Assembly: GCF_003334815.1 (NCBI RefSeq)
Contig: NZ_QOWO01000066.1
From: Escherichia coli
Lineage (GTDB): Bacteria; Pseudomonadota; Gammaproteobacteria; Enterobacterales; Enterobacteriaceae
Length of the DNA: 8,045 bases
Reading direction: 5' to 3' (one strand)
A model generated the notes under the pieces. It saw nothing but the letters and a program-made list of their open reading frames with translations, was not told where the DNA came from and did no database searches. Position numbers and translations under genes: made by a program. Shown in pieces: positions 1-8,045 of this stretch (positions within the stretch are counted from its first letter, which is position 1; each line of letters starts with the position of its first letter).

Positions 1-78
1 GTTATCGTGAGAGTAATTCATCGGCACGTTAAATCATATCAGGCGTAATACCACAACCCTTAAGTTAGCGCTTATGGG
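1..78. repeat. Left terminal inverted repeat (78 bp), perfect reverse complement of 7968..8045
   Basis: Hand comparison: bases 1-78 (gttatcgtgagagtaattcatcggcacgtt...ttagcgcttatggg) are the exact reverse complement of the last 78 bases of the window. A further ~12 bp inward match imperfectly (about 7 of 12). Confidence 0.93.
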
Positions 79-124
79 GTAAAACCCCGCGTACTGAATT
101 GTGATGGTTTGGTCTCCTGCACCC

Positions 125-259: not shown

Positions 260-2959
260 ATGCGTAAATATCCTTTAAGTTTACTGAAGGATAAAAATAT
301 TGTGACTTTTTTTGATTTCTGGGGAAAAACCCGACGCGGCGAGAAAGACGGGGGCGACGACTATCACCTTCTTTGCTGGCATTCGCTGGATGTAGCCGCG
401 ATGGGCTATTTAATGGTTAAAAGAAATTGCTTCGGGCTGGCTGATTATTTTCGTCAATTAGGGATTTCTGACAAGGAACAGGCGGCTCAATTTTTCGCCT
501 GGTTGCTGTGCTGGCACGATATTGGAAAATTTGCCCGCTCTTTTCAACAACTTTACCTGCCCCCTGAACTCAAGATTCAGGAAGGTGCCAGAAAAAATTA
601 CGAAAAAATCTCTCATTCAACGCTGGGCTACTGGTTGTGGAATCATTATTTAAGTGAATGTCAGGAGTTACTTCCTTCATCTTCGCTCTCTCCGCGCAAA
701 CTTAGGCGAGTGATAGAAATGTGGATGCCCGTGACGACAGGGCATCATGGTCGGCCCCCTGATCGTATGGATGAATTGGATAATTTTCTGCCTGAAGACA
801 AAGCTGCAGCACGAGATTTTCTCCTTGAAATCAAACCACTGTTTCCGCTCATAGAGATCCCCGCATTCTGGGATGATGATGAGGGCATTGAACTTATAAA
901 ACACCTTTCCTGGTATATCTCTGCAACCGTCGTGCTCGCAGACTGGACGGGTTCGTCAACGCGATTTTTTCCACGCGTCGCACACCCAATGGATATTAAA
1001 GGTTACTGGCAGAAAACTTTAATTCAGGCTCAAAACGCCTTAACCGTCTTTCCTCTAAAAGCAAAAGTCGCGCCTTTCAACGGAATTAATACGCTGTTTC
1101 CTTTTATTGAGAATCCGACACCGTTACAGCAAAAGGTGCTGGATCTGGATATCAGCCAGCAAGGACCGCAGTTATTTATTCTGGAAGATGTGACTGGCGC
1201 AGGTAAAACAGAAGCGGCGCTTATCCTGGCGCACAGGTTGATAGCTGCGGGGAAAGCTCAGGGGCTGTTTTTTGGTCTGCCAACAATGGCAACGGCCAAT
1301 GCCATGTACGATCGGCTGGTCAAAACCTGGCTTGCTTTCTATTCGCCAGAATCCCGCCCCAGCCTGGTGCTGGCACATAGTGCCCGCACATTAATGGACC
1401 GCTTTAATGAATCACTCTGGTCTGGTGATTTAGTCGGGTCAGAAGAACCGGATGAACAAACGTTCAGTCAGGGATGTGCGGCCTGGTTTGCCGACAGTAA
1501 CAAGAAGGCGTTGCTGGCTGAAATTGGCGTCGGCACGCTGGATCAGGCGATGATGGCGGTGATGCCGTTCAAACATAATAATCTGCGGCTTCTGGGGCTG
1601 AGTAACAAAATCCTGCTGGCTGATGAGATCCACGCCTGTGACGCTTACATGTCGTGCATTCTTGAAGGGTTGATCGAGCGGCAGGCGCGTGGCGGAAACA
1701 GCGTTATTTTGCTTTCTGCCACGTTATCTCAACAGCAGCGCGACAAACTCGTCGCTGCCTTTGCGCGGGGTACAGAGGGCCAGCAAGAAGCTCCGTTCCT
1801 GGAAAAGGATGATTACCCCTGGCTGACGCATGTCACGAAATCCGATGTGAACTCACACCGGGTAGCGACGCGCAAAGACGTTGAGCGTAGCGTCAGCGTG
1901 GGTTGGCTTCATAGTGAACAAGAGTGTATTGCGCGTATCGAATCGGCGGTAAGTCAGGGGAAATGCATCGCCTGGATCCGGAATTCTGTCGATGACGCTA
2001 TTAAGGTTCATCGTCAGCTGCTTGCCCGCGGCGTCATTCCTGCTTCCAGCCTTTCACTTTTTCATAGCCGCTTTGCTTTTAGCGATCGCCAGCGAATTGA
2101 AACGGAAACGCTGGCACGCTTTGGTAAATATTGTAGTTTACAGAGAGCGTCGCAAGTCATTGTTTGTACACAAGTAATTGAGCAAAGCGTGGATATTGAC
2201 CTGGACGAAATGATCTCCGACCTGGCCCCTGTTGATTTGCTGATTCAGCGAGCAGGACGATTACAGCGGCATATCCGCGATATTAATGGTCAGTTAAAGC
2301 GTGACGGAAAGGACGAGCGTTCCCCCCCTGAATTGCTGATTCTGGCTCCCGTCTGGGACGACTCTCCTGGCGACGAATGGTTTGGCAGTGCCATGCGTAA
2401 CAGTGCATTTGTCTATCCCGATCATGGGCGAATCTGGCTGACGCAGCGTGTGCTGCGTGAGCAAGGTGCTATTCAGATGCCACACGCAGCCCGGCTTCTT
2501 ATTGAATCCGTCTACGGTGAGGACGTGGTAATGCCGGAAGGATTTGCCCGCAGCGAGCAGGAGCAAGTGGGCAAATATTACTGTGATCGCGCAATGGCTA
2601 AAAAGTTTGTGCTGAACTTCAGGCCCGGCTATGCCGCCAATATCAACGATTACCTCCCGGAAAAACTGTCGACACGTCTGGCTGAGGAGTCTGTTTCCCT
2701 GTGGCTGGCTACCTGTATTGACGGTGTGGTGAAGCCTTATGCCACCGGTGCTCACGCATGGGAAATGAGCGTTGTCAGAGTGCGCCGAAGCTGGTGGAAA
2801 AAACATCGGGATGAGTTTTCTTTACTGGAGGGAGAGGCGTTCAGGCTGTGGTGCATTGAACAGCGACAAGATCCGGAGATGGCAAACGTGATTTTAGTCA
2901 ACGATGACGAAAGTTGCGGGTATTCGGCTACGGAAGGATTGATTGGCAAGGTTGGTTGA
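260..2959 (+). CDS. cas3: Type I-E Cas3 HD nuclease / superfamily-2 helicase (899 aa)
   Basis: Long ORF with ATG at 260 and TGA at 2957-2959. N-terminal HD-domain motifs (HLLCWHSLDVAA, CWHDIGKF), Walker A (DVTGAGKTEAAL) and DExH-like box (LLADEIHACD). Size and position upstream of cse1 match type I-E cas3. No clear Shine-Dalgarno before the ATG, so the exact start is uncertain. Confidence 0.93.
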   Translation: MRKYPLSLLKDKNIVTFFDFWGKTRRGEKDGGDDYHLLCWHSLDVAAMGYLMVKRNCFGLADYFRQLGISDKEQAAQFFAWLLCWHDIGKFARSFQQLYLPPELKIQEGARKNYEKISHSTLGYWLWNHYLSECQELLPSSSLSPRKLRRVIEMWMPVTTGHHGRPPDRMDELDNFLPEDKAAARDFLLEIKPLFPLIEIPAFWDDDEGIELIKHLSWYISATVVLADWTGSSTRFFPRVAHPMDIKGYWQKTLIQAQNALTVFPLKAKVAPFNGINTLFPFIENPTPLQQKVLDLDISQQGPQLFILEDVTGAGKTEAALILAHRLIAAGKAQGLFFGLPTMATANAMYDRLVKTWLAFYSPESRPSLVLAHSARTLMDRFNESLWSGDLVGSEEPDEQTFSQGCAAWFADSNKKALLAEIGVGTLDQAMMAVMPFKHNNLRLLGLSNKILLADEIHACDAYMSCILEGLIERQARGGNSVILLSATLSQQQRDKLVAAFARGTEGQQEAPFLEKDDYPWLTHVTKSDVNSHRVATRKDVERSVSVGWLHSEQECIARIESAVSQGKCIAWIRNSVDDAIKVHRQLLARGVIPASSLSLFHSRFAFSDRQRIETETLARFGKYCSLQRASQVIVCTQVIEQSVDIDLDEMISDLAPVDLLIQRAGRLQRHIRDINGQLKRDGKDERSPPELLILAPVWDDSPGDEWFGSAMRNSAFVYPDHGRIWLTQRVLREQGAIQMPHAARLLIESVYGEDVVMPEGFARSEQEQVGKYYCDRAMAKKFVLNFRPGYAANINDYLPEKLSTRLAEESVSLWLATCIDGVVKPYATGAHAWEMSVVRVRRSWWKKHRDEFSLLEGEAFRLWCIEQRQDPEMANVILVNDDESCGYSATEGLIGKVG

Positions 2960-3056: not shown

Positions 3057-4619
3057 ATGAACTCGTTTTCACTTCTGACAACCCCGTGGTTGCCCGTTCG
3101 TTTTAAAGACGGAACGACAGGCAAACTGGCGCCAGTCGATCTGGCGGATGAAAATGTTGTCGATATTTCTGCGCCGCGGGCAGATCTCCAGGGTGCGGTA
3201 TGGCAGTTTTTGCTGGGGCTACTACAAACCAGCTTCGCGCCAAAAGATCATCGTCGTTGGGATGATATCTGGGAAGACGGACTGGAAGCTGAAAAGCTAC
3301 GGGAAGCATTGCAGTCATTAGAACATGCTTTCCAGTTTGGGCCAGATTCCCCTTCATTTATGCAGGATTTCGAGGCGCTCACCGGAGATAAAGTTCCGGT
3401 CGCTTCGCTACTGCCTGAGATTCCCGGCGCTCAAACAACGAAGTTTAATAAAGACCACTTTATCAAGCGTGGTGTAACGGAATACCTGTGCCCACATTGT
3501 TCTGCGTTAGCTCTGTTCTCCCTACAGTTGAATGCGCCGTCAGGTGGCAAAGGCTACCGCACCGGTTTACGCGGCGGTGGGCCGATGACCACTCTGATTG
3601 AATTACAGGAATATCAGGGTAATCAACAAACTCCCTTGTGGCGCAAACTGTGGATCAATGTCATGCCGCAGGATGAAGCCGATTTACCGCTACCCAAAAA
3701 ATTTGACGATCTGGTTTTCCCCTGGCTTGGCCCGACGCGCACCAGCGAACTGGCCGGTGCGGTGGTAACCGATGAGCAGGTCAATAAACTCCAGGCGTAC
3801 TGGGGAATGCCTCGCCGTATTCGTATTGATTTTAATACCACGACAGTCGGCAACTGCGATATTTGCGGTGAGCAGAGCGACGCGCTCCTGAGCCTGATGA
3901 CGACCAAAAATTACGGTGCGAATTATGCCATGTGGCAGCATCCCTTAACGCCTTACCGTGTACCACTTAAAGAGGGTGGCGAGTTTTACTCCGTTAAACC
4001 ACAACCGGGCGGTTTAATCTGGCGTGACTGGTTAGGCCTTATCGAAACGGGTAAATCAGAAAACAATACGGAACTTCCCGCGCTGGTGGTGAAACTCTTC
4101 AATGCCAGCAGTCTCAAGCAGGCAAAAGTGGGCCTGTGGGGATTTGGCTATGATTTCGACAACATGAAAGCGCGCTGTTGGTACGAACACCATTTCCCGC
4201 TGCTGCTCGATAAAAAAGAAGGTCAGATACCGAAGCTGCGGCTGGCTGCGCAAACAGCTTCACGGATTCTAAGTCTGTTACGGAGTGCATTGAAAGAAGC
4301 ATGGTTCTCCGATCCAAAAGGTGCAAGGGGTGATTTTAGTTTTGTGGATATCGACTTCTGGAACAAAACTCAGCATCGCTTTCTGAGGTTAGTGCGCCAA
4401 ATTGAAGAAGGTCAGGATGCGGATGAATTACTCAGCAAATGGAATAAGGAAATTTGGTTATTCGCACGTCAGGATTTTGACGAGCGTGTATTCACCAATC
4501 CTTATGAGCCCGTTGATCTGGAACGCGTCATGACCGCGCGCAAGAAATATTTTACAACATCGGCGGAGAAGCAAAGTGCTAAAGCCGCCAGGGAGAAAAA
4601 GCAGGAGGCTGCTGAATGA
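3057..4619 (+). CDS. cse1: Cascade large subunit Cse1/Cas8e (CasA), ~520 aa
   Basis: N-terminus MNSFSLLTTPWLPVRFKDG resembles the E. coli CasA N-terminus (..NWIPVR..) and an internal GLRGGGPMTT resembles CasA SGLRGGTPVTT, both as I recall them. The stop overlaps the cse2 start. Start chosen at ATG 3057, with GAGG six nt upstream; the ORF-track start at 2988 is a TTG, and ATG 3051 is also possible. Confidence 0.88.
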   Translation: MNSFSLLTTPWLPVRFKDGTTGKLAPVDLADENVVDISAPRADLQGAVWQFLLGLLQTSFAPKDHRRWDDIWEDGLEAEKLREALQSLEHAFQFGPDSPSFMQDFEALTGDKVPVASLLPEIPGAQTTKFNKDHFIKRGVTEYLCPHCSALALFSLQLNAPSGGKGYRTGLRGGGPMTTLIELQEYQGNQQTPLWRKLWINVMPQDEADLPLPKKFDDLVFPWLGPTRTSELAGAVVTDEQVNKLQAYWGMPRRIRIDFNTTTVGNCDICGEQSDALLSLMTTKNYGANYAMWQHPLTPYRVPLKEGGEFYSVKPQPGGLIWRDWLGLIETGKSENNTELPALVVKLFNASSLKQAKVGLWGFGYDFDNMKARCWYEHHFPLLLDKKEGQIPKLRLAAQTASRILSLLRSALKEAWFSDPKGARGDFSFVDIDFWNKTQHRFLRLVRQIEEGQDADELLSKWNKEIWLFARQDFDERVFTNPYEPVDLERVMTARKKYFTTSAEKQSAKAAREKKQEAAE

Positions 4620-5152
4620 GTATTGTAAAAGAGGAGCACAAAGCCACGCTGCGCAAATGGCACGAGGAATTGCAGGAGAAACGTGGCGAACGTGCCAGTC
4701 TGCGGCGTAGTACGACGGTTAATGATGTTTGTCTGACGGATGGATTTCGCCTGTTTCTGAAGAACAGACAAATAAAGTGGCAGGATGAACCTGAGTGGCG
4801 TATCACCGCACTGGCGCTGATAGCCGCAGTTAGCGCCAATGTTAAAGCTATTGATGAACGGCAGCCTTTTGCCGCGCAGCTGGCGGCGGTAATGTCAAAG
4901 GGGCGTTTTACTCGTCTGTCGGCAGTAAAAACACCGGATGAATTACTGCGCCAGTTACGCCGCGCAGTCAGATTATTAAACGGTTCCGTCAATCTTGACT
5001 CTCTGGCAGAGGGGGTCTTCCGTTGGTGCCAGGAGAGCGACGACCTGCTCAATCATCACCGCCGCCAGCAGCGGCCAACCGAATTTATCCGTATCCGCTG
5101 GGCGCTGGAATATTACCAGGCTGGCGACGCCGATAACGAACAAAATCAATAA
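4616..5152 (+). CDS. cse2: Cascade small subunit Cse2/Cas11 (CasB), 178 aa
   Basis: ATG at 4616 overlaps the cse1 stop (ATGA), with AGGAGG about 8 nt upstream. Size, basic/helical composition and position between cse1 and the cas7 start are as expected for Cse2. Assignment is mainly by synteny and size. Confidence 0.8.
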   Translation: MSIVKEEHKATLRKWHEELQEKRGERASLRRSTTVNDVCLTDGFRLFLKNRQIKWQDEPEWRITALALIAAVSANVKAIDERQPFAAQLAAVMSKGRFTRLSAVKTPDELLRQLRRAVRLLNGSVNLDSLAEGVFRWCQESDDLLNHHRRQQRPTEFIRIRWALEYYQAGDADNEQNQ

Positions 5153-5163
5153 AGGACTATCTC

Positions 5164-5208
5164 ATGACAACATTTATTCAGCTTCATTTGTTAAGGGGCG
5201 GCTTATGA
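5164..5208 (+). pseudogene. cas7: cas7 (casC/cse4) remnant: 14-codon stub MTTFIQLHLLRGGL*
   Basis: ATG at 5164 preceded by AAAGGA at the expected spacing. The first residues (MTTFIQLHLL) resemble the E. coli CasC N-terminus (MSNFINIHVL, as I recall it). The ORF ends after 14 codons at a TGA that overlaps the cas5 ATG. A native cas7 is about 360 codons. Confidence 0.5.
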
Positions 5209-5526
5209 GCCAATATCTGATTTTTCAGCTTCATGGGCCGATGGCGTCCTGGGGTGTCGATGCTCCAGGTGAAGTTCGTCATACCCATGAACTTCCTTCG
5301 CGCTCAGCATTGCTGGGGCTACTGGCTGCCGGGGTAGGGATTCGGCGTGATGATACCGAACGCTTAAACGCGTTTAATCGCCACTATTCACTGGTGGTTT
5401 GCGCCAGCCGTAACCCGCGCTGGGCACGGGATTATCACACGGTCCAGATGCCAAAAGAGGTGCGTAAAGCACGTTATTTCAGCCGTCGCGAAGAGTTGAG
5501 CGACCCTGATCCGCACGCACATTCCG

Positions 5527-6605
<1,079 letters not shown>

Positions 6606-6701
6606 GTTATCCGTTCTTTAAAAATAAGGAAATGTTTTAATTTAGTTGGTAGATTGTTGATGCGGAATAAATTTGTTTAAAAACAGTTATGTATGCTTAG
6701 T
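6606..6701 (+). promoter_or_regulatory. CRISPR leader (AT-rich, between cas2 and first repeat)
   Basis: 96-bp AT-rich segment immediately upstream of repeat 1 and downstream of cas2, the canonical I-E leader position that carries the array promoter and IHF/integration signals. Confidence 0.8.
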
Positions 6702-7949
6702 GTGTTCCCCGCGCCAGCGGGGATAAACCGAACATTAAATTGCCGTGCTGGATGAATCGCGGGTGTTCCCCGCGCCAGCGGGGATAAACCCTGGATCAGC
6801 TGGTTCAATCGTTTACAGCACTGGTGTTCCCCGCGCCAGCGGGGATAAACCGGCAGTAAATTATTTGACCTCGTTGATAATCCCGTGTTCCCCGCGCCAG
6901 CGGGGATAAACCGCCGGTGCAACTGATATTGATAAACGTCGACTCGTGTTCCCCGCGCCAGCGGGGATAAACCGACACCCGACCGCTAACCGATTTCGTT
7001 ACAGTAGTGTTCCCCGCGCCAGCGGGGATAAACCGTGTATCACCGAAAGAATGGTTTGACGCGCAGGGTGTTCCCCGCGCCAGCGGGGATAAACCGACGT
7101 CTATCATTTTCAGTACAAGCTGGGTTTTGTGTTCCCCGCGCCAGCGGGGATAAACCGGACGATCCCGAGATTCACAGAGTTACAACTAAGTGTTCCCCGC
7201 GCCAGCGGGGATAAACCGGAAATTTTCACATGGATTGTAGCCCTGTATATGTGTTCCCCGCGCCAGCGGGGATAAACCGGCCAGGCGGTCGGATTAGGTG
7301 CAAATCAAAATGTGTTCCCCGCGCCAGCGGGGATAAACCGCGCTGGCGGTGCGAGTGCTGGAGGCGCTGAAAGTGTTCCCCGCGCCAGCGGGGATAAACC
7401 GCAGGAGACGGCCAGCCGGAACGGCGGCGGCGTGTGTTCCCCGCGCCAGCGGGGATAAACCGTCGGGCGGCTCTGGTGTTCCTGACATGGCGGCGTGTTC
7501 CCCGCGCCAGCGGGGATAAACCGAATTTGCATCACATAGGGGCGAGGCTCAGTGAGTGTTCCCCGCGCCAGCGGGGATAAACCGTTCTTGCGGGTGTTGC
7601 AAATATTCTCCACGTAGTGTTCCCCGCGCCAGCGGGGATAAACCGCCTGTTTTTTGTGCGGGGAATTATGGGGGAATGTGTTCCCCGCGCCAGCGGGGAT
7701 AAACCGTTATACTGATTTTGATTTGTATTTCGGTCGCTGTGTTCCCCGCGCCAGCGGGGATAAACCGACACGCCCTGCCGTATTTACTGACGCGCAGGAG
7801 TGTTCCCCGCGCCAGCGGGGATAAACCGCCGCGCAAATCCAGCGAGCCGCCGACGCTCAGTGTTCCCCGCGCCAGCGGGGATAAACCGTTGCAAACCGTG
7901 GCAAACGCAATTAACAAAAAGTGTTCCCCGCGCCAGCGGGGATAAACCG
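6702..7949 (+). CRISPR. Type I-E CRISPR array: 21 x 29-bp repeats (GTGTTCCCCGCGCCAGCGGGGATAAACCG), 20 unique spacers
   Basis: Repeat starts at 6702, 6763, 6824 and so on at 61-bp period to 7800, then 7860 and 7921. Spacers are 32 bp except spacer 19 (7829-7859, 31 bp). Repeat 2 ends in C instead of G (6791). The repeat has the CCCCGC/GCGGGG stem and ATAAACCG 5-prime handle typical of I-E crRNA. Transcribed on + from the leader, so the newest spacer is 6731-6762. Confidence 0.97.
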
Positions 7950-7967
7950 AGTTAAGAGGGGGTTTTT

Positions 7968-8045
7968 CCCATAAGCGCTAACTTAAGGGTTGTGGTATTA
8001 CGCCTGATATGATTTAACGTGCCGATGAATTACTCTCACGATAAC
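7968..8045. repeat. Right terminal inverted repeat (78 bp), reverse complement of 1..78
   Basis: Hand comparison shows an exact reverse-complement match to bases 1-78. It begins 18 bp after the last CRISPR repeat. Confidence 0.93.

Follow-up and report, generated by a model that had tools for sequence, protein, structure and literature searches.

Early decay is the probable state of an Escherichia coli type I-E CRISPR locus whose clean array is inherited

The 8,045-nt stretch of E. coli DNA analyzed here (the window, at its full length) very probably represents the native chromosomal CRISPR-I locus of the species, of the type I-E cas-E1 variant, in a state of early decay, with the array remaining as a passive and young leftover. 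It is a locus of known kind in a known decay state, and the system is one that is usually silent. The evidence for this reading comes from the gene content of the operon, from close relatives that carry the same locus, from the spacer order of four arrays and from the insertion sequences that bound the window.

The Cas proteins were identified and their truncations shown with NCBIfam profiles, and the deletions were mapped by alignment to the intact operon of NCTC9100. All genes and gene remnants of the operon lie on the plus strand. The first gene, cas3 (260..2959), is intact, encodes 899 aa and is 100% identical at the DNA level to that of NCTC9100; the HD and helicase core models of Cas3 both match it, as expected of the helicase-nuclease of type I-E. 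It is followed by casA/cse1 (3057..4619, 520 aa), intact and matched by TIGR02547 over its full length (E = 2.6e-183), and by casB/cse2 (4616..5152, 178 aa), intact and matched over its full length by TIGR02548. The last gene of the operon, cas2e (6312..6605, 97 aa, TIGR01873), is also intact. The open reading frames of cas3, casA, casB and cas2 fit a recent event and, taken by themselves, are also compatible with some residual role.

Between casB and cas2e, the operon is interrupted by two deletions. Only the first 31 nt of cas7e are left (5164..5194, by alignment to NCTC9100), and the first junction (5192-5195) carries a 3-bp microhomology, TAA, at which 1,025 bp are gone, from nt 32 of cas7e through its stop codon. 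The cas5e remnant, delimited by the same alignment, consists of the first 305 of 747 nt (5205..5509), with 59% of the gene missing and the NCBIfam profile match limited to positions 1-95 of 230. Its open reading frame continues into cas1 sequence, which it reads in the wrong frame, and ends at 5630, giving a 141-aa fusion product. The second junction (5508..5510) shows a 2-bp microhomology, GA; here 1,188 bp are gone, comprising the 3′ part of cas5e from nt 306, the whole of cas6e and nt 1-118 of cas1e in comparison with NCTC9100. What is left of cas1e (nt 119-924, at 5510..6315) lacks the start codon and the first 39 codons, and the match of its product to TIGR03638 is confined to profile positions 43-268 of 269. 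The preliminary description, drawn up from the letters of the window, had listed cas7, cas6e, most of cas5 and the N-terminus of cas1 as missing, and the alignment and the profiles both bear this out. Collectively, only cse1 and cse2 of the Cascade set (cse1, cse2, cas7e, cas5e, cas6e) are intact in the window, and the adaptation module found there consists of a truncated Cas1e and a whole Cas2e.

The consequences of these losses can be predicted from established I-E biology. Cas6e has an established role in pre-crRNA cleavage, reportedly described by Brouns and colleagues in 2008. Pre-crRNA would not be processed because Cas6e is absent, Cascade would not assemble because Cas7 and Cas5 are absent, and spacers would not be added because Cas1 is not full-length. 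The locus would therefore be non-functional for interference and adaptation alike, and mature crRNA from its array is predicted to be absent without Cas6e, Cas7 and Cas5.

The CRISPR array (6702..7949, plus strand) is composed of 21 copies of a 29-nt type I-E repeat, GTGTTCCCCGCGCCAGCGGGGATAAACCG, and 20 spacers that represent, in order, part of an ancestral array of 24. The palindromic repeat recurs with a period of 61 nt and folds into the stem-loop that serves as the substrate of Cas6e, a hairpin with the canonical 7-bp stem (-15.2 kcal/mol, z = -3.2). All 20 spacers are distinct, 19 of them 32 nt and one 31 nt in length (7829-7859), and even the most similar pair differs at 17 positions. 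The count of 21 repeats with one base variant and 20 unique spacers given in the preliminary description was reproduced, and the variant was located at the last base, a C, of repeat 2 (6763-6791), an internal repeat and not the terminal one. The same description called the array near-pristine. This holds for the repeats and spacers, which are clean, and fails for the array as a whole, which is split by IS421 and has lost four of 24 ancestral spacers. The last repeat is followed by the first 20 nt of a 21st spacer, AGTTAAGAGGGGGTTTTTCCCCACCGTTCAGG (7950..7969, plus strand), and then by the IS421 that breaks it, and in relatives the rest of the split spacer, five further spacers and a degenerate terminal repeat adjoining iap lie beyond this element. 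Upstream of the array, the AT-rich, 96-nt leader (6606..6701, plus strand) is the same as in the cas-intact NCTC9100, and the alignment of the two loci over 5510-6823 contains no mismatch. A simple promoter scan found no strict sigma-70 consensus in the leader, a result that carries no information, since cas-intact relatives have the same leader sequence. When the spacers were searched against phages and plasmids, the matches were nearly all repeat-driven and led to other CRISPR arrays. Three weak spacer-level matches (E = 0.03-0.4) were obtained in all, namely spacer 3 to Escherichia phages vB_EcoM-569R10 and relatives (30/33), spacer 12 to Klebsiella phage Kp4866-3 (28/30) and spacer 19 to Edwardsiella phage Edno5 (29/33), and they are not informative about the present use of the array.

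Relatives with the same locus allowed the deletions to be dated and ordered. The operon variant of the window was found at a coverage of at least 80% in 2,105 of 5,426 complete E. coli genomes. NCTC9100 and ETEC4073 share a complete layout, cysH, hok, IS421 (minus strand), cas3-casA-casB-cas7e-cas5e-cas6e-cas1e-cas2e, array, IS421 (plus strand), array remnant and iap. With the deletions left out, the window differs from NCTC9100 by one mismatch in 6,745 comparable bases, from which it follows that both microhomology deletions are evolutionarily young. It differs from 52F4, the complete genome of a separate isolate, by two mismatches in 6,745 nt. The cas7 junction of 52F4 is identical to that of the window, and cas5e, cas6e and cas1e are still present there; therefore, the cas7 deletion came first and is common by descent, and the deletion from cas5e to cas1e arose later, in the window's own lineage. 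The two deletions occur together in none of the 5,426 complete E. coli genomes. Of the alternatives raised in the preliminary description, very recent deletion is thus the one upheld by the comparison with NCTC9100 and with 52F4, which has the cas7 deletion in common with the window.

Comparable damage has occurred elsewhere in the species. In PI12, the deletion extends from cas7e over most of cas1e, in VTB96935v and OZ547226 the 3′ part of cas5e is deleted together with cas6e, and in FORC_042 cas7e is shortened and frameshifted; the array is kept in every one of these strains. The breakpoints differ from those of the window, and the events are independent. E. coli has thus arrived repeatedly at a damaged operon with a tidy array next to it, and truncated Cas5e products are frequent in the records of E. 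coli and Shigella sonnei. On the event order suggested by the relatives, decay of the window's locus would have started with an IS421/IS186 insertion upstream of cas3, which is widespread among genomes, followed by a second, inverted IS421 that entered a GGGG..CCCC-like spacer and split the array. The 1,025-bp microhomology deletion, common to 52F4, would then have removed cas7e, and the 1,188-bp microhomology deletion would finally have taken out cas6e entirely, along with the 3′ part of cas5e and the 5′ end of cas1e.

The comparison of spacers with related strains that the preliminary description had proposed for dating the deletions was carried out, and it yielded an ordered ancestor of 24 spacers with losses only. 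The arrays of the window, NCTC9100, ETEC4073 and 52F4 all fit this single order and retain 20, 22, 20 and 12 of the ancestral spacers, respectively. No spacer gain was found among these four arrays; their differences are internal losses, in lineages with intact cas genes as in those without. E. coli I-E arrays generally change mainly through the occasional loss of repeat-spacer units. Spacers 1 and 2, which lie next to the leader, and the variant repeat 2 are the same in all four arrays, and this variant is inherited and common to the relatives. Spacer 7 (7097-7128) is present in the window alone among the four arrays. It was considered as a recent acquisition and rejected, since it occurs elsewhere in an identical sp6-sp7-sp8 context in other genomes and is ancestral.

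The clean state of the array has to be read against this short history. At the observed divergence, we would expect at most about 0.1 substitutions in the 609 nt of repeat, and the arrays of cas-intact relatives are equally clean and equally static. Perfect repeats are therefore uninformative about selection or use, because the divergence amounts to only 1-2 substitutions per 6.7 kb, and the array looks pristine because there has been too little time for point mutations. In conclusion, we find that the array is a frozen inheritance and a passive relic, which is not kept by use. In published work (PMC12248084, PMC10910852), the E. coli I-E system is described as silent at the level of transcription, with arrays that stay stable over years, and this silence and stability fit relaxed selection on the system.

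The alternative that keeps most weight, though it is very unlikely, is that the array is kept working by Cas7, Cas5 and Cas6e, and perhaps Cas1, supplied in trans from a second I-E set on the chromosome or on a plasmid. Such supply has a precedent, in that E. coli Cas proteins serve the cas-less CRISPR-II arrays in trans, the repeat being the same (PMC3903273), and the intact cas3, casA, casB and cas2 of the window would be compatible with it. We searched the 5,426 complete E. coli genomes with a chimeric query in which the cas7-cas5-cas6e segments of the two E. coli I-E variants were combined, at a megablast level that sees cas operons at least about 85% identical to one of these variants. 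The query was found at 3,861 places in 3,844 genomes and at a single place in 3,827, which leaves at most 17 of the 3,844 genomes with Cascade genes at two or more places, and none of the 5,426 genomes carried Cascade genes on a plasmid at this level. A second chimeric query, which joined the 52F4 junction region to the reverse-complemented cas7 of both variants such that each copy of cas7 counts separately, was found at one place in 52F4 as against two in intact genomes. At megablast sensitivity, 52F4, which among complete genomes carrying the cas7 deletion is the closest to the window, thus lacks another cas7 that could compensate for the lost one. Against trans use also stand the absence of spacer gains in any compared lineage and the clean array, which is expected at this divergence regardless of use. 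The preliminary description's proposal of an array still used with Cas proteins supplied in trans is thus not sustained, a judgement that rests on the relatives and on species-wide statistics.

A plasmid could in principle provide the lost functions. The conjugative IncHI2A plasmid pIOMTU792 carries casB-cas7e-cas5e-cas6e-cas1e-cas2e-array-iap next to ISEcp1-blaCTX-M-15 and thereby holds exactly the genes that are missing here, plus an array. It is the sole true plasmid with such genes among 72,556, and plasmid supply, while physically possible, is accordingly rare. It is hardly to be expected that the source strain, or strains met by it, carry a plasmid-borne I-E Cascade/Cas6e, such as a pIOMTU792-like, ISEcp1-captured casB-cas2e segment or a related plasmid system compatible with I-E repeats, by which the orphaned 20-spacer array would be re-armed each time a plasmid of this sort arrives in the cell. 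If this were true, the re-armed array would constitute a chromosomal spacer memory with horizontally supplied effector genes.

Both ends of the window lie within IS421/IS186, and the preliminary description had taken them for the inverted repeats of a possibly mobile and parasitic cassette. A composite transposon, in which the IS421-cas-array-IS421 unit moves as a whole and exploits the Cas machinery of its host, is exceedingly improbable. The left end (1..76, minus strand), with the terminal inverted repeat CATAAGCGCTAACTTAAGGGTTG, belongs to a copy that extends leftwards past the window and is annotated with an IS4-like IS421 transposase in relatives. It is followed by GGGTAAAACC (77..86), the inner copy of its 10-bp target-site duplication in the hok-cas3 intergenic region; the outer copy is found in NCTC9100, and the empty left insertion site, cacgcggGGGTAAAACCccgcg, is seen in FORC_042. 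The right end (7970..8045, plus strand) belongs to a second copy, inverted with respect to the first, that extends rightwards past the window. The inner copy of its target duplication, GGGTTTTTCC (7960-7969), lies within the split spacer, and in NCTC9100 GGGTTTTTCC stands on either side of the right IS421, followed by the remainder of the spacer and the leftover array. Since a separate 10-bp duplication flanks each IS421, the two copies represent independent insertions and not a composite transposon, and no single duplication surrounds the whole IS-cargo-IS unit in NCTC9100, where the outer flanks, which lie outside the window's contig, can be read. The inverted repeat of the window ends appears as 93 nt instead of 76 nt because both insertion sites are similar sequences of the GGGG..CCCC type, a known target preference of IS186 (PMC3903273). 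IS186 insertions at precisely both of these GC-rich hot spots, together with IS-driven erosion of cas-E, have already been described (Almendros et al. 2014, mBio, PMC3903273).

Two observations could be taken in favor of the composite transposon, namely that the window is bounded by two inverted IS421 ends and that the segment is inverted as a unit in 52F4. The contig of the draft assembly GCA_965212685.1 that matches the window also has both ends inside IS421/IS186; the apparent cassette results from short-read assembly, which broke off within two oppositely oriented copies of a multicopy IS. With respect to cysH and iap, the 52F4 segment is turned around as a whole and its target duplications are swapped, the signature of an in-place inversion by homologous recombination of one IS copy with the other. 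The right IS, furthermore, sits inside a spacer and leaves the remaining array on its far side. Of the complete genomes, 502 have the left IS421 junction and about 24 have the right one, a nested pattern of vertical descent. In the complete E. coli genomes compared, the segment is single-copy and always lies between cysH/hok and iap, and the chimeric-query tests of the 5,426 genomes revealed no plasmid copy. The mobile, parasitic cassette is thus set aside in favor of two IS421 insertions at the native cysH-iap locus.

It is just as improbable that the deletions are artefacts of draft assembly and that the true locus is intact. The suspicion arises from the fact that the locus is known from an 8.1-kb short-read contig. 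The cas7 junction, in contrast, is identical in the independent complete genome 52F4, and neither junction contains collapse-prone repeats, just 2-3 bp of microhomology. The unique fusion reading frame created by the second deletion is present in contigs of two sources, NCBI and Logan: the 141-aa product is recorded as CAM9424706.1, a hypothetical protein of E. coli from the draft GCA_965212685.1, and is also found in Logan assemblies, and the 8,118-bp contig of this draft agrees with the window except at position 84, where there is a single mismatch. A new role of the array that is independent of cas genes or directed against them, for example to block I-E cas genes from being acquired again, has a precedent in E. 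coli orphan I-F arrays with spacers against I-F cas genes (Almendros 2016, cited in PMC5972030) and is likewise scarcely credible here, given that no spacer matches either cas-E variant, the window or its flanks over 17 nt or more (the best being a 16-nt chance match), which also speaks against self-targeting, and that the spacer set was inherited from cas-intact ancestors.

With the array regarded as a passive leftover of a decaying native locus, the window can be placed among known systems. It agrees in position, repeat, leader and gene order with the E. coli CRISPR-I (CRISPR2.1) I-E cas-E1 locus with IS186 (PMC3903273), including IS186/IS421 both at the GC-rich site upstream of cas3 and within the array, and differs from it by two extra small deletions inside the operon that are not IS-mediated. 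It also resembles degenerate I-E loci of E. coli and Shigella (PI12, VTB96935v, FORC_042), in which cas genes are partly deleted or frameshifted beside a clean array, although the breakpoints differ. BL21-type strains similarly lack cas genes and keep their arrays. Like the window's array, the E. coli CRISPR-II arrays bear I-E repeats and need Cas proteins encoded elsewhere; a functional cognate operon is present in the cell in their case, whereas the resident operon of the window is broken and no other is found in 52F4, the closest complete relative. Phage and plasmid mini-arrays, as well as type IV-A3 plasmid systems, which borrow I-E adaptation proteins, are further cas-less arrays with a cognate operon in the cell. 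The orphan I-F arrays of E. coli with anti-cas spacers (Almendros et al. 2016) are similar in that an array outlives its cognate cas genes; the window, by comparison, has no cas-matching spacer, and its cas loss is partial and very recent.

The discovery value of the locus itself is small. Two cautions for the reading of such loci can be drawn from it: clean repeats and unique spacers beside broken cas genes are no proof of use when the locus lies 1-2 bases per 6.7 kb from intact relatives, and inverted repeats at the ends of a short contig are often merely an assembly break in IS copies. The one incidental lead of broader interest is the capture of Cascade genes and an array on the conjugative, blaCTX-M-15-bearing pIOMTU792, which indicates that I-E effector genes occasionally move horizontally. 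For the biology of E. coli, the locus provides a clean, datable picture of the erosion of an unused I-E system by IS421 insertion, inversion between IS copies, microhomology deletions within the operon and stepwise spacer loss.

Decay of the cas operon with retention of the array is found in several other E. coli strains, in which operon-internal deletions have arisen independently of one another (coordinates outside the window are internal to each retrieved locus). In strain PI12, the operon is missing everything from cas7e through most of cas1e (locus 9001-9161). The 3' part of cas5e and the whole of cas6e are lacking in VTB96935v (locus 9014-9493), and the same loss is seen in OZ547226. FORC_042 carries a cas7e that is both shortened and frameshifted (locus 9045-9759) together with a frameshifted cas3, and cas3 is likewise frameshifted in ETEC4073.

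Three spacers of the window array show weak, protospacer-like matches to phages. Spacer 3 (6853-6884) matches Escherichia phages vB_EcoM-569R10, -720R5, -705R4, and -783R5 at 30/33 positions, spacer 12 (7402-7433) matches Klebsiella phage Kp4866-3 at 28/30, and spacer 19 (7829-7859) matches Edwardsiella phage Edno5 at 29/33. Because their E-values range from 0.03 to 0.4, some of these matches may be due to chance. The phage collection also holds several short records that consist of I-E CRISPR arrays, such as OR845838.1 and OR851156.1, and three entries that PLSDB lists as plasmids (NZ_OL790696.1, NZ_CP134663.1, and NZ_CP141089.1) are chromosomes, each 4.8-4.9 Mb in size. Such array-only phage records and chromosomal PLSDB records inflate the seeming phage and plasmid matches to CRISPR sequences.

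Among the 72,556 plasmids searched, pIOMTU792 (NZ_LC542972.1), a conjugative IncHI2A plasmid of E. coli, is the sole true plasmid with these cas genes. It carries casB-cas7e-cas5e-cas6e-cas1e-cas2e followed by an array and iap (locus 3699-9697 and 11430-14202), all adjoining WbuC-blaCTX-M-15-ISEcp1, and the segment is apparently chromosomal CRISPR-I DNA taken up by an ISEcp1 transposition unit. An I-E repeat fragment of about 150 bp immediately adjoins WbuC-blaCTX-M-15-ISEcp1 on the IncI1 plasmid pR11-698-2 (NZ_CP107157.1; locus 8001-8152), and is probably the leftover of a similar ISEcp1 capture from the iap-CRISPR region.

The inverted repeat that bounds the window (1-93 and 7953-8045) extends about 17 nt past the ends of the two IS421/IS186 copies. 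Their insertion sites, GGGTAAAACCCC and GGGGGTTTTTCC, are alike, both being of the GGGG..CCCC type, a likeness that is consistent with the target preference of IS186. One of the two sites is a spacer, so the sequence content of a spacer can attract IS421/IS186. The left target-duplication copy contains the sole difference between the window and contig CBDBYT010000080.1 (A versus C at position 84). An insertion of ISKpn26 (an IS5-like element) separates the left IS421 from cas3 in VTB96935v (locus 493-2916) and is further IS build-up at the hot spot of the left IS421.

In the complete genome of 52F4 (NZ_CM147848.1; locus 2619-13889, corresponding to the whole window), the whole cas-array segment bounded by the two IS421 copies lies in the opposite orientation with respect to cysH/hok and iap, and the two copies have their target duplications swapped. 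Together, these two features indicate that IS-IS recombination flips the CRISPR-Cas locus and parts the main array from the distal five-spacer fragment.
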